This document shows, piece after piece, positions 29,302 to 55,321 of a stretch of 64,000 nt of DNA (positions within the stretch are counted from its first letter, which is position 1; every line of letters begins with the position of its first letter). Below the pieces are notes generated by a model that saw nothing but the letters and a program-made list of their open reading frames with translations, was not told the DNA's origin and did no database searches. The DNA is taken from positions 94,121 through 158,120 of the IMG/VR virus record IMGVR_UViG_3300009703_000007; one strand, given 5' to 3'. The stretch is from a virus (Duplodnaviria; Heunggongvirae; Uroviricota; Caudoviricetes). A program made the translations under genes and the position numbers.

Positions 29302-29595
29302 TTAGTCTGACCAAAGTAGTGGAATAGAGAACAACGCAAACATCCAGTACACAGGCCAAATAATAATGACCATACAAGTCAGTATAAACCGGGGTTTGGC
29401 CGGAGCTGTGTGCTGGAACACTCCCGTGCGTGCCAGTCTGAGTTTGCTGGCCATGTCGCGGTCACCCATGCCTTTGAAGTGTCTTTCCAGGCGTAGACAC
29501 AGCGCGGTGAAGCCTTGGAACGTCATACCTGCTACGGCGGTCATCGCTCCTACGAACATGTAGCCGAGCATAGGGTGGCTAAAAAGAATATCCAT
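29302..29595 (-). CDS. small membrane protein
   Basis: Hydrophobic segments in a 97-aa ORF. Confidence 0.4.
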   Translation of the reverse strand: MDILFSHPMLGYMFVGAMTAVAGMTFQGFTALCLRLERHFKGMGDRDMASKLRLARTGVFQHTAPAKPRFILTCMVIIIWPVYWMFALFSIPLLWSD

Positions 29596-30241
29596 TACTG
29601 ATGTACCTCCGGTACGTTTTGCTTATGTGGTTTGTGGGATTGGCTTGGCCAGGAGCCCATTCCAACATACGCCTGATACCGTTTCTAGTATTGGCGCGGG
29701 GGTTGTCGTTAGACGCGTCGTGCGTAGGTAGTTGGTAAGGGAAGTCATCCCACCTGTGCCAGCCCGCCATAAACAGATGTGCTTTGGGGAACAACATGAA
29801 CGGCCTCAGCACGTTGCCCTTAGTAGGGGGCATGTACCTACTTTGCCTTACATTGCCCTTTAGTACCTGCATCGTATACCAGGTAACAGCGTCATCCAAG
29901 TGGTGTCCCACTACTACGGGAACGTCTTGCGCTTCGTAGATGTCCCTGCGCTGTCTAGACCACACACCCTCGGAAGCCTTGTCCAGCTTGTATGTCTTAA
30001 CTTCTACGTCTAGAGACTCACCTGCTTTTAGTACTTGTGTCTCTGTATAGTCCGCGTCACGTGTACTGTGATTAACATGCACAATGTGCGTAACCTTACA
30101 GCGATGTCTATACGGACCTAGCCTGAGCACCTGCCAAGCCGCTGTGGAGTCTTCTCCTCCCGACAAGGCTACGCAGACCTTGGGAGGCAGCCAGGTCGTC
30201 AGAGGGTATTTAAGAGGGATCTCTTTTGGGTTTCTTCGCAT
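29579..30241 (-). CDS. PP-loop ATPase, tRNA(Ile)-lysidine synthetase (TilS) N-terminal-domain-like
   Basis: SGGxDS P-loop VALSGGEDSTA. HVNHSTRDAD matches TilS HVxHGLR. VGHHLDDAVTWYTM matches TilS AQHLDDQCETFLL. Confidence 0.6.
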   Translation of the reverse strand: MRRNPKEIPLKYPLTTWLPPKVCVALSGGEDSTAAWQVLRLGPYRHRCKVTHIVHVNHSTRDADYTETQVLKAGESLDVEVKTYKLDKASEGVWSRQRRDIYEAQDVPVVVGHHLDDAVTWYTMQVLKGNVRQSRYMPPTKGNVLRPFMLFPKAHLFMAGWHRWDDFPYQLPTHDASNDNPRANTRNGIRRMLEWAPGQANPTNHISKTYRRYISNGYSF

Positions 30242-40927: not shown

Positions 40928-41012
40928 TTGATTTCCTAGCTTTCTTGTGTTGTACTGTTGGGTAAAAGAAAATGGTGCGCCCACTAGGACTTGAACCTAG
41001 GACCTGCCGGTT

Positions 41013-41771
41013 CACGTTTGTGTACGTTTCCGTACTCCGCGGACTATATCTTCACCCTCAGCCGTACTGTTAGGGTGCAGGGCGCTCTTGCCGGTGATTA
41101 AGGACACTTTGCTTACGCAGTCCTCCGGTAGTCTCTGCACGTTCCACGGGTGTACCCGTGGCTTCGCTCAAGGTTAGCCTAGCAATCCGTACGTACGTGC
41201 CCACTTTTTGACTGCGTTATTAGAAACGCCATAAGCTCGACCTAGCGCTACATAACTTTGCGTCTGTAGCATTAGTTCCAACTCAGCCTTAGAGGGCCTG
41301 TCCTTTGCTTTTCGCCTAAGGACGTTGACACATTCTCGGCTACACGCACGCTTTTGTTTAGCCTGTAGGCAGTTCCCACAGACCTCACAGCGTGCGACAG
41401 ACGTGACTGCCTTAGCTTTCCCTGAATTCACCCTGTCCACCCCGAATCTTTCGATACCGGGGGCACCGTTTCTAAGCCAATGGTGTAGTTTCGCGTGCTG
41501 GCCTCTACTAAGCACCAGCAAATTGTTAGCCCGGTTGTTGGATTTGTCACCGTCTAGATGGTGCACCTCCTCATACCGATCTAGCTCCCTGCCAATTGCA
41601 TCTGAGGCTACCTTACGATGCTCGTATACCCACCCTTCGTGATCGCCACTCTTGTAGGCGTGCACATGATCAGGAGCGTATACCATGACGTAACCGCGAT
41701 TCTTCCTTGGCTGCTTGTGTTCATTGCTCATGCAGGTATGGTAGTCTACTTGAACCTCAAACACAACCACA
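41013..41771 (-). mobile_element. ~760-nt intron in the tRNA(CAT) anticodon loop (group I-like placement) carrying an HNH ORF
   Basis: Interrupts the anticodon loop between positions 36 and 37. The ORF occupies most of the insert. Confidence 0.5.
41174..41731 (-). CDS. HNH homing endonuclease (intron-encoded)
   Basis: EVHHLDGDKSNNRANNLLVLSRGQHAKLHH HNH motif. The track ORF extends in-frame to a GTG at the first intron nucleotides. ATG chosen at MSNEHKQ. Confidence 0.65.
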   Translation of the reverse strand: MSNEHKQPRKNRGYVMVYAPDHVHAYKSGDHEGWVYEHRKVASDAIGRELDRYEEVHHLDGDKSNNRANNLLVLSRGQHAKLHHWLRNGAPGIERFGVDRVNSGKAKAVTSVARCEVCGNCLQAKQKRACSRECVNVLRRKAKDRPSKAELELMLQTQSYVALGRAYGVSNNAVKKWARTYGLLG

Positions 41772-41949
41772 ATGAGCCGGATGCTCTAACCATCTGAGCT
41801 ATAGGCGCACATTTTCTTTTGTTACTACCTTATACCTCAAGGCACAGGTAGTTTGTCGCTTTGAGGCAGTCACGGCCACCTCTGGCCTCAAAGCTGGCCA
41901 ATACCTTAGCGCTCAATGTGGCTCGACGCTAGTACTGGCTTGGGTTATT

Positions 41950-50589: not shown

Positions 50590-50667
50590 TGGTTGAGGCG
50601 GTAGGATTTGAACCTACAAAATCGCCTGGGTCAGAGCCAGGTGTTCTGCCATTTGAACTACGCCTCA
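50590..50667 (-). tRNA. tRNA-Gln (anticodon CTG)
   Basis: Acceptor tgaggcg/cgcctca. Anticodon stem cctgg/ccagg with loop ctctgac. T arm gtagg-ttcaaat-cctac. CCA encoded. Confidence 0.75.
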
Positions 50668-54608: not shown

Positions 54609-55321
54609 TGGTATCCCTTCGTGGTTAGTAACTGCAAGGTCTTATGTAGTCGCAGGACATGTTGATCAGCTCTTTGGCGCCGCAGTAGTACTCGACTACT
54701 AGGATCGTGATGCCCTCGAACGCTAGGGTTCGGCGTGCTATCTCATCCTCGCCGCACCACCTACAGTGTCTTCTCTCATTCACAGTTCTACCGCGTAAAC
54801 ACGGCCTCCAGTACCTCTGTTAGGTTGTTGATTTTATCAAGTAAATGGTGGAGGCGGTGGCATCGAAGCCACGTCCCGAGTTTGCTAGTAGCGTCAGCCT
54901 TTTACGTGAGGTAGCCCTTCAGCCGGAGGGCACGGTGTCGCTGACTTTGCCAGCAGTCAACCTCTGAAGTTTCGCAGTCACGAGGGAGGCACCTCGATTC
55001 AGCTATCTCTAGTACATTTGACCCTGCGCGCTACAAGAGCATCTTACGCGCAAAGCCCCGGAGTCCATCACGTTGGATCATCTCCGGAAAGGACTTCGTT
55101 CTGCCTAGGCAGCGACGGCGAGAGGCGCGAACGCTCCCTCGTCGACGTCGAACTCGCTGACGAGCTCGGCATCGAAGTCCTCGTAGTTCCCGTTGTTGGC
55201 AACTATTTGAACTGGGTGTTTATCGGTTCACCCATCCTACTCACGAAACTGGGGCATTCACACCCCGGTCGAGTCCTTTCGCCCCCGTAAGGGTATGTTC
55301 TGCTTTCTTATACCATTTTGC

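Follow-up and report, generated by a model that had tools for sequence, protein, structure and literature searches.

How can a tRNA gene that is interrupted in its anticodon loop, by an insert that itself codes for a protein, still give rise to a functional tRNA? This question is raised by a stretch of phage DNA of 64,000 nucleotides (nt), positions 94,121 to 158,120 of the IMG/VR record IMGVR_UViG_3300009703_000007 (Caudoviricetes), which is called the window here and numbered from its first letter. On its minus strand a tRNA gene with the anticodon CAT lies in two exons separated by 759 nt, which contain an open reading frame (ORF) for an HNH endonuclease. A preliminary description of the sequence had proposed that the insert is a group I intron and that the tRNA may be a lysidine-modified decoder of AUA codons, supplied together with its modification enzyme. 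Our analysis makes it highly probable that this is a phage tRNA-Ile2(CAU) gene split by a mobile group I intron, with the HNH ORF running through the ribozyme, and that the spliced tRNA would be lysidine-modified by the phage's own TilS-like enzyme.

The split tRNA gene

The 5′ exon (minus strand, 41808..41772, 37 nt, GCGCCTATAGCTCAGATGGTTAGAGCATCCGGCTCAT) ends in CUCAU and comprises the 5′ strand of the acceptor stem, the D arm, the 5′ strand of the anticodon stem and the anticodon loop through C34-A35-U36. The 3′ exon (minus strand, 41012..40973, 40 nt, AACCGGCAGGTCCTAGGTTCAAGTCCTAGTGGGCGCACCA) starts with AA and continues from A37 and A38 through the 3′ strand of the anticodon stem, the variable loop, the T arm and the 3′ strand of the acceptor stem to A73 and an encoded CCA. 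Both exons lie exactly where the preliminary description had placed them, and ARAGORN recognizes a tRNA(cat) once they are joined. The ligated exons form a 77-nt cloverleaf with a minimum free energy of −28.9 kcal/mol as calculated by RNAfold (z = −2.8 against shuffled sequences). It is a genuine cloverleaf, if not the perfect one that had been claimed, with a U27•C43 mismatch and a U6•G67 wobble. The insertion point falls between tRNA positions 36 and 37 and, as noticed before, the 5′ exon ends in U (41772) and the intron in G (41013). Run without introns, ARAGORN lists ten further tRNAs for the window, of which none has the anticodon CAT, in line with the earlier statement that there is no second tRNA of this kind.

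The junction itself can be read from alleles that lack the insert. A scan with the 32-nt ligated junction identified seven viral contigs (L208-L214) with uninterrupted tRNA(CAT) genes, which read CTCATAACC across this point. In BLAST alignments with these alleles the window exons are contiguous and break exactly at 41772|41012. No syntenic close relative of the window phage was obtained for a comparison of intron-plus and intron-minus forms at the same locus, and a megablast search of INPHARED with 20 kb of the window revealed no close relative, only tRNA-sized or short matches.

When introns are allowed, ARAGORN does find a split tRNA; it places the intron 2 nt upstream, after position 35, and the isotype then becomes tRNA-Gln(ctg). 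That the true product is a tRNA-Gln(CUG) with this shifted junction, or that a protein-based pathway of endonuclease and ligase takes the place of self-splicing, is nevertheless hardly conceivable. The shifted junction would have C instead of U at position −1 and ignores the pairing of CAU with the GUG guide described below. Only the junction CUCAU|...G|AA combines U at −1 with G at the intron end, so that shifted junctions can be rejected, and the sequence CTCATAACC of the intron-less alleles fits only 41772|41012. Moreover, the 5′ exon ends in CAT in all 131 loci of the intron family, the window already possesses a tRNA-Gln(CTG) at 50590-50667, and a complete group I core is present in the insert.

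The group I ribozyme

The proposal that the insert is a group I intron was borne out by a search with Rfam across the intervening sequence. Model RF00028 (Intron_gpI) matches 41483..41020 over its full length (1-253) with 69.3 bits, compared to a gathering score of 50 (E 1.6e-15). Together with the comparison of family members this defines an intron of 759 nt at 41013..41771 (minus strand, like all elements that follow). It starts with an expanded P1 loop, L1, of ~305 nt (41467..41771), in which a short hairpin on the 5′ side accompanies the ATG (41731) and the codons of the HNH nuclease domain; in ORF-less relatives this part measures 5-14 nt. Next comes the internal guide sequence (IGS) GUG at 41466-41464, within the codons for Gly89-Ala90. 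P1 arises from its pairing with the anticodon CAU, in which the final U of the 5′ exon faces the first guide G as a U•G pair at the splice site. The P2 hairpin (41462-41440, with a GAAA tetraloop at 41452-41449), the 5′ strand of P3 (41435-41429, followed by J3/4) and the 5′ strand of P4 (41425-41420, followed by J4/5) all lie inside the ORF. The 5′ strand of P5 with the tetraloop receptor (41416-41410) was assigned in part from the Rfam alignment, and the P3-P5 5′ strands together (41410..41435) encode the residues ..RVNSGKAK.. of the endonuclease.

An insertion of ~226 nt in L5 (41409-41184; 12-25 nt in ORF-less relatives) codes for the C-terminal DNA-binding part of the protein. The 3′ strand of P5 (41183-41177) is followed by J5/4 (41176-41174), which is the stop codon TAA, the 3′ strand of P4 (41173-41168), the P6/P6a hairpin (41167-41139) and the 5′ strand of P7 (41136-41130). 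At a position reminiscent of P7.1/P7.2 in IA introns there is a two-tier hairpin (41128-41091), whose proximal stem covaries. The 3′ strand of P3 (41084-41078), P8 (41077-41053), J8/7 with the 3′ strand of P7 (41052-41041), the covarying P9.0 (41040-41038 with 41016-41014), P9 with a GAAA loop (41035-41022) and the terminal omega-G (41013) complete the intron.

Two alternative assignments near the 5′ end were discarded. In the Rfam alignment, the portion assigned to P1/P2 (41483-41445) contains many non-canonical pairs and is misplaced, since the ORF-less relatives put GUG plus P2 at 41466-41440. The second candidate, AUGAGC (41731-41726), overlaps the start codon and could serve as a 6-bp guide for GCUCAU; it would create a U-A instead of a U•G pair at the splice site, and relatives have not conserved it.

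The ORF-less introns present the same architecture in compact form: 5′ splice site, 5-14 nt, GUG, a GNRA-capped P2, P3, J3/4, P4, J4/5 and P5 with a receptor of the CCUAAG/UAUGG type, then P6, P7, the hairpin in the P7.1/P7.2 position, P3′, P8, P7′, P9.0, P9 with its GAAA loop and omega-G. The ORF-bearing introns contain the same elements plus ~300 nt between splice site and GUG (L1) and ~215 nt in L5. We assign the ribozyme and its anatomy with high confidence.

Conservation and covariation of the core

To evaluate the structure, the cores of 20 ORF-bearing and 44 ORF-less introns (64 sequences) were aligned with MAFFT, and 47 modelled pairs from P3 to P9.0, those of the P3/P7 pseudoknot included, were scored. 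Over all 64 sequences 94.7% of the pairs are canonical compared to 76.3% in column shuffles, none of 500 of which reaches the observed value, and sliding the strands by 1-3 columns leaves 27-42%. The 20 ORF-bearing introns considered separately give 94.9% versus 76.6% (0/500; 29-42% when slid by 1-3 columns). Restricting these to the 14 pairs of P3, P4 and P5, which have one strand within the ORF, the corresponding values are 98.9% and 86.0% (0/500), with 28-51% after sliding by 1-2 columns. Changes on both sides occur in 32 of the 47 pairs in the full set and in 26 in the ORF-bearing subset. P7 alternates between G-C (54) and A-U (10), and the pairs of P9.0 vary among GC, CG, AU and UA. The trinucleotide GUG stands directly 5′ of P2 in 64/64 family members; judged sequence by sequence, a P2 hairpin follows it in every case (mean z −3.4) with a GNRA loop in 53 of 64, and compensatory changes in P2 are plain among the ORF-bearing members. 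P1 itself (CAU/GUG) is invariant, and covariation therefore gives no test of this helix.

The refuting alternative raised in the preliminary description was that an HNH element had simply inserted into the anticodon loop, leaving a ribozyme that no longer splices and a dead tRNA gene. Such a view would draw on the fact that the ORF occupies the core and might have damaged the ribozyme, and on the very long L1. Yet in the window copy the core helices, the guide, the tetraloop/receptor motifs and the omega-G are all intact, and both exons are equally intact and match the uninterrupted alleles. At least 20 divergent members, with proteins that share only 30-57% identity, have kept the ORF-through-core layout and show compensatory changes in it. 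Copies that are decaying differ from it, having a broken ORF and a preserved ribozyme (see below). We regard a dead gene as very improbable.

The endonuclease ORF and its dual coding

Within the 759-nt insert one frame is open from 41770 to 41174 on the minus strand. The HNH ORF proper (41731..41174) specifies 185 residues from an ATG at 41731, which is the likely start codon judging from the alignment with homologues, to the TAA stop. The N-terminal part is an HNH_3 domain (PF13392: 37.7 bits, threshold 24.8, E 1.6e-9; motif EVHHLDGDKSNNRANNLLVLSRGQHAKLHH) and the C-terminal part is Cys-rich and helix-turn-helix-like; the protein also matches PHROG 15471 with an E of 1.6e-32. The earlier reading of an HNH ORF in the intron was thus correct, while the opening of its frame up to the first intron nucleotides turns out to be a coincidence that relatives do not share.

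It had also been suspected that the ORF overlaps structured RNA, and this is indeed the case: the IGS, P2 and the 5′ strands of P3, P4 and P5 are all within the reading frame, where they code for residues 89-107 (GAPGIERFGVDRVNSGKAK). The ORF is so to speak threaded through the ribozyme, with the nuclease domain encoded in L1, the inter-domain linker in the segment from the IGS to P5, the DNA-binding domain in L5 and the stop codon in J5/4. In the codon alignment of the endonucleases, third positions are 0.62 identical in codons 89-107 compared to 0.41 in the rest of the ORF, and at codons 100, 101 and 106 the third position is invariant though the amino acid varies. Together with the pairing statistics of the core and the comparison with a free-standing homologue that follows, these values show that selection acts on RNA structure inside the endonuclease reading frame.

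A free-standing homologue, gp296 of phage phiKZ (NC_004629, record positions 268916-269398; L207 1555-2037), shares 42% identity with the intron protein and is encoded beside a tRNA-Asn gene. Its surroundings contain neither an Rfam ribozyme match nor a split tRNA. The phiKZ protein has a linker that is shorter by ~14 residues, and what it misses includes NGAPGIE and SGKAKAV, the stretches coded by IGS-P2 and P4-P5 in the introns. As a side remark, the annotated start of gp296 looks truncated, a NGYRALYLPEH motif being encoded just upstream in another frame.

Some further features were observed in the 5′ part of ORF-bearing introns. A GGTTCRA motif resembling a tRNA T arm is present within the first 15-60 nt of the introns of L001, L003, L004 and L005 and also in the window at 41760-41745, where AGGTTCAAGT is identical to the T arm of the tRNA itself. 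A short hairpin is found just after the 5′ splice site, and TATAAT-like boxes precede the ORF in the same four relatives (L001, L003, L004, L005) and not in the window. These features could be the relic of a free-standing endonuclease gene once adjacent to a tRNA, or else expression signals.

An intron family at a fixed site

The HNH protein has 42 homologues of 30-57% identity. In each of the four homologue contigs that were fetched, the HNH gene resides in a tRNA split after CTCAT, in an insert of 762-778 nt that ends in ACAAAYNTG and scores 69-76 bits with Rfam; four of four in the same setting means that the arrangement is not due to chance. A degenerate 40-nt pattern of the intron 3′ end then retrieved 23 viral, 56 genome and 117 metagenome contigs, in which each upstream CAT was tested with ARAGORN for a split tRNA(CAT). 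A tRNA(CAT) interrupted directly behind its anticodon emerged at 131 loci, with 99 unique introns, so that at least 99 distinct members belong to the family. Intron length is bimodal, with 225-280 nt for introns without an ORF and 715-786 nt for those with the HNH ORF. ORF-less introns occur in Burkholderiales and other bacterial genomes, in agreement with PMC13011429, and the HNH-bearing forms are from viral or unbinned metagenome contigs plus two small contigs of metagenome-assembled genomes of the candidate phyla radiation (CPR). Scanning IMG/VR with back-translations of the HNH protein and of the neighbouring metallophosphatase returned no relatives.

The element is present or absent at a fixed site, where intron-less, ORF-less, ORF-bearing and decayed-ORF forms are all observed. 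The intron appears to home, given that its endonuclease is of the HNH family, that intron-less alleles exist and that ORF-less, intact and decayed forms coexist at one site. In the introns of L090/L176 (571 nt) and L096 (598 nt) the HNH frame is broken or shortened and the ribozyme motifs are intact; the tRNAs concerned are nearly identical to those carrying introns with an intact ORF (L104) or without an ORF (L021). They look like stages of a homing-degeneration cycle.

One of the cultured phages also harbours a member of the family. In the Klebsiella jumbo phage Muenster (MT708547, record about 302825-303155; L206 about 2480-2810) an unannotated tRNA(CAU) is split by an ORF-less group I intron that reaches 104.1 bits with Rfam and whose split tRNA is missed by ARAGORN even with introns allowed. 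By BLAST only, similar sequences are detected in KP13-7, RCIP0023, phiKp_21, Escherichia virus TH47 and OU509535.

Three other observations concern the surroundings of this family. The viral contig L016 (IMGVR_UViG_3300000352_000012) has a 588-nt intron with the same ribozyme at the same tRNA(CAU) site, whose sole insertion is in L5 and contains a different ORF of 138 residues, which suggests an independent invasion by another endonuclease gene. In L022/L029 (reverse-complement 1251-2082), ~1 kb upstream of an ORF-less tRNA(CAU) intron, a second tRNA-like gene has an insert of 753 nt called by ARAGORN, in which the core motifs of the tRNA(CAU) intron family were not found. Finally, L032-L087 (Calothrix and other cyanobacteria; Rhodothermales) have the 40-nt 3′ signature beside 3′ exons from which no tRNA(CAT) was obtained. 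Here related introns probably interrupt other tRNAs at position 36/37, as is known for tRNA-Arg.

Identity of the spliced tRNA and the TilS-like protein

A tRNA with a CAU anticodon can be an initiator or elongator tRNA-Met or, if its C34 is converted to lysidine, a tRNA-Ile2. The spliced tRNA has the loop CUCAUAA with A37 and A38, the pairs G1-C72, G3-C70, C4-G69, C5-G68, C11-G24 and U12-A23, and A73. According to Silva et al. (PMC1635315), G3/C70 sets tRNA-Ile(CAT) apart from Met and fMet, C4-G69 and C5-G68 are typical of Ile2, and A11-T24 and G12-C23 mark fMet. The tRNA-Ile2-like acceptor stem that had been pointed out on account of C4-G69 and C5-G68 thus fits these rules, with G3-C70 in addition; of the fMet markers there is no A11-U24, and no C1xA72 mismatch either. 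Its best matches in E. coli are PGAP-annotated tRNA-Ile genes with the anticodon CAT in prophage tRNA clusters. On this basis the spliced tRNA probably reads AUA.

The candidate partner is a minimal TilS-like PP-loop protein of 220 residues (minus strand, 30241..29579), found at the position given in the preliminary description. It consists of the catalytic N-domain only and contains the SGGxDS, HVNH, HHLDD and RN motifs. The protein matches PF01171 with 49.9 bits (threshold 27, E 4e-13). Comparison with the TilS profile TIGR02432 (TilS_N), which had been suggested as a check, gave a match over the full profile at a score of 51.6 bits, below the trusted cut-off of 93.6. The same profile is matched by all nine family members, with relatives reaching an E of 1.2e-36. 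A profile of the TilS-like family recovers the TilS structures 1wy5, 1ni5 and 3a2k from the PDB with E-values of 4.5e-38 to 1.8e-28, the next being TtuA at 5e-8. With the window protein as a single sequence, phmmer found no match in the PDB, and a word-indexed protein search with its ORF returned only the protein itself. The homologues are 200-214 residues long, share the motifs SGGxDS, H-x-x-H, W-R-x-x-R-Y, HHLDD, RPF and N-x-D...RN, and align only to residues ~20-230 of the solved TilS chains (317-464 residues). By tblastn, homologues are present in 12 fetched loci (about nine distinct), either 27-900 bp from the split tRNA(CAU) and on the same strand or ~8 kb away.

AUA is a heavily used codon in the window. 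Judged from 57 crudely called ORFs, which cover 79% of it, ATA amounts to 17.6 per 1000 codons or 38% of the Ile codons, with a GC content at third positions (GC3) of 0.61. ARAGORN detects no tRNA-Ile(UAU) in the window. Taken together, the data support the view that the tRNA and the TilS-like protein constitute a phage-borne AUA-decoding pair. Our confidence in an Ile2/TilS function, as deduced from these comparisons, is moderate.

An alternative accepts the intron and takes the tRNA for an elongator tRNA-Met, the PP-loop protein 11 kb off being unrelated, for example another tRNA- or nucleotide-modifying PP-loop enzyme. ARAGORN indeed labels the tRNA as Met and the most similar phage tRNAs are annotated as Met, the window protein stays under the TilS_N cut-off and has none of the TilS C-terminal domains, and Ile2 and Met are acknowledged to be difficult to discriminate (PMC1635315). 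However, ARAGORN labels every CAT tRNA as Met and we assume that the phage annotations stem from similar tools, while G3-C70 is said to exclude fMet as well as Met, and Ile2 typically has C4-G69 and C5-G68 (PMC1635315). The PGAP-annotated best matches in E. coli are tRNA-Ile(CAT), and the TilS structures are ahead of other PP-loop enzymes by ~30 orders of magnitude in E-value. Furthermore, TilS-like genes adjoin the split tRNA(CAU) in many loci, and the window combines a high ATA usage with the absence of another AUA decoder. An elongator tRNA-Met is consequently an unlikely, though not a negligible, explanation.

Apart from these genes the window is phage-like in content, with ORFs for a DNA polymerase, a primase, a helicase and an RNA-polymerase-beta-like protein, and eleven tRNA genes. 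It also has a full-length gene for transfer-messenger RNA (tmRNA) on the minus strand at 54846-55286 (Rfam RF00023, 78.6 bits, model 1-374).

Proposed mechanism

How would this gene be expressed? Following the established group I pathway, the CAU anticodon would pair with the GUG guide to form P1 with U36•G at the splice site, the core from P3 to P9.0 would fold, and an exogenous G would attack after U36. The omega-G at 41013, positioned by P9.0, would then be used for exon ligation. The anticodon stem would hold the exons in place of P10, a substitution that has reportedly been described for an Anabaena pre-tRNA. The spliced tRNA is most likely modified to lysidine by the single-domain TilS-like enzyme of the phage, and would thereby be charged with isoleucine and decode AUA, 38% of the Ile codons.

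A ribosome moving through codons 89-107 must unwind the IGS-P5 segment, and translation and ribozyme folding should therefore be mutually exclusive on any one RNA molecule. Translation from the excised intron, or from a transcript starting at an internal promoter, would avoid this conflict. The HNH endonuclease presumably cuts the intron-less tRNA(CAU) genes of co-infecting relatives, upon which the intron would be copied into them.

Several points weigh against this reading. P1 comprises only 3 bp, is invariant and must close a loop of ~305 nt in the ORF-bearing forms, and no convincing Shine–Dalgarno sequence precedes the ATG at 41731. The score of the TilS-like protein lies below the trusted cut-off of TIGR02432, and its gene is 11 kb from the tRNA gene instead of adjacent to it. 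The missing C-terminal domains are those which in E. coli TilS read C4-G69 and C5-G68, and this leaves the discrimination of the substrate unexplained. The codon usage is based on crude ORF calls and describes the phage window, not the host. Outside well-sampled clades Ile2 and elongator Met are hard to separate (PMC1635315). Lastly, splicing, cleavage and modification are deduced for this system from sequence. With these reservations, the observation made in the preliminary description holds at its coordinates and the interpretation is supported as far as such an analysis reaches.

A broader view would be that the phage possesses a self-contained AUA module, in which tRNA-Ile2 and a single-domain mini-TilS that recognizes its substrate without C-terminal domains allow heavy AUA use independently of the host. 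The tRNA would at the same time be the homing site of a group I intron family new to phages, with a threaded ORF that renders translation and splicing exclusive, and the endonuclease may act as a weapon against co-infecting phages whose tRNA-Ile2 genes lack the intron. This combined view is a tentative one, to which we give somewhat less than an even chance.

The findings have several implications. Group I introns in tRNA genes were formerly seen as bacterial or organellar, and ~100 distinct introns of one family, from phages, metagenomes and bacteria, make the phage tRNA(CAU) a recurrent home of this ribozyme. Because neither the intron nor the tRNA is recognized in standard annotation, as exemplified by Muenster, phage tRNA inventories and the arguments on codon usage derived from them are biased. 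The ORF-through-core layout, with one sequence selected as ribozyme and as protein linker, should be useful for studying the co-adaptation of endonuclease and ribozyme. The linkage with an enzyme of ~200 residues points to a minimal lysidine synthetase and provides a testable explanation for the 38% AUA usage.

Comparison with known systems

The Azoarcus pre-tRNA-Ile intron, like the window intron, has a 3-bp P1 formed by the anticodon CAU and a GUG guide, with P2 directly after it. Group I introns in tRNA anticodon loops, including that of tRNA-Ile(CAU), are well known in bacteria (PMC13011429). The closest parallels are the bacterial tRNA-Ile(CAU) introns of Azoarcus sp. BH72 and the IA-type introns in tRNA-Ile2 listed in Pseudomonadota (PMC13011429), which occupy the same type of host gene at an anticodon-loop site. 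In contrast to the compact IC3 intron of Azoarcus, the window intron resides in a phage, contains an HNH gene and has a hairpin that by its position resembles P7.1/P7.2 of IA introns. According to the 2026 survey, homing-endonuclease genes are rare in bacterial tRNA introns and there are none in tRNA-Ile2 (PMC13011429). The cyanobacterial tRNA-fMet(CAU) intron with I-Ssp6803I is a group I intron that likewise interrupts a tRNA(CAU) in its anticodon loop, and its endonuclease targets the anticodon region. It differs in being located in an initiator tRNA of a bacterial host, at site 33/34 (PMC13011429), and in encoding a PD-(D/E)XK instead of an HNH nuclease.

All phage introns known by 2014 were in protein-coding genes despite the many tRNA genes of phages (Hausner et al. 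2014). The HNH-containing group I introns of phages, such as those in the DNA polymerase genes of SPO1-like Bacillus phages and in crAss-like phages, have a related core in protein-coding genes. BLAST matches of the family core indeed include introns in the DNA polymerase genes of Bastille-like phages and in the crAss-like phages cr4_1 and cr6_1. In cr6_1 (NC_055894; L030 about 1400-1660) the core from P2 to P8 is ~72% identical and is not within a tRNA (none detected by ARAGORN); its endonuclease gene, found downstream in the 3′ region and on the other strand, is not threaded through the core. Comparison of these introns shows that a related core is in circulation among introns that occupy different genes of phages. 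In Lak megaphages, tRNA introns had been unreported before in phages and were called enigmatic; like the present ones they interrupt phage tRNA genes, but they were not classified as group I (Devoto et al. 2019). The literature searched contained no description of a group I intron in a tRNA gene of a phage, which does not prove that no such report exists.

A class of group I introns with an endonuclease ORF that overlaps core sequence is known (Hausner et al. 2014, Fig. 2b), and here too nucleotides serve both RNA and protein. The window ORF differs from this generic overlap in running from L1 through the IGS and P2-P5 into L5, such that the inter-domain linker is encoded by ~57 contiguous nt of the ribozyme. 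No description of a layout straddling L1 and L5 was found in a search of the literature that was not exhaustive. As for the enzyme, a TilS homologue was noted in phage MIJ3 in 2019 and neither a partner tRNA nor a role was proposed, in contrast to the minimal TilS described here, which is genetically linked to a split tRNA. The kinds of element involved, a tRNA group I intron, an HNH endonuclease and a tRNA-Ile2/TilS pair, are thus all known; here they occur in a phage, with an unusual dual coding and a conserved association with a minimal TilS.

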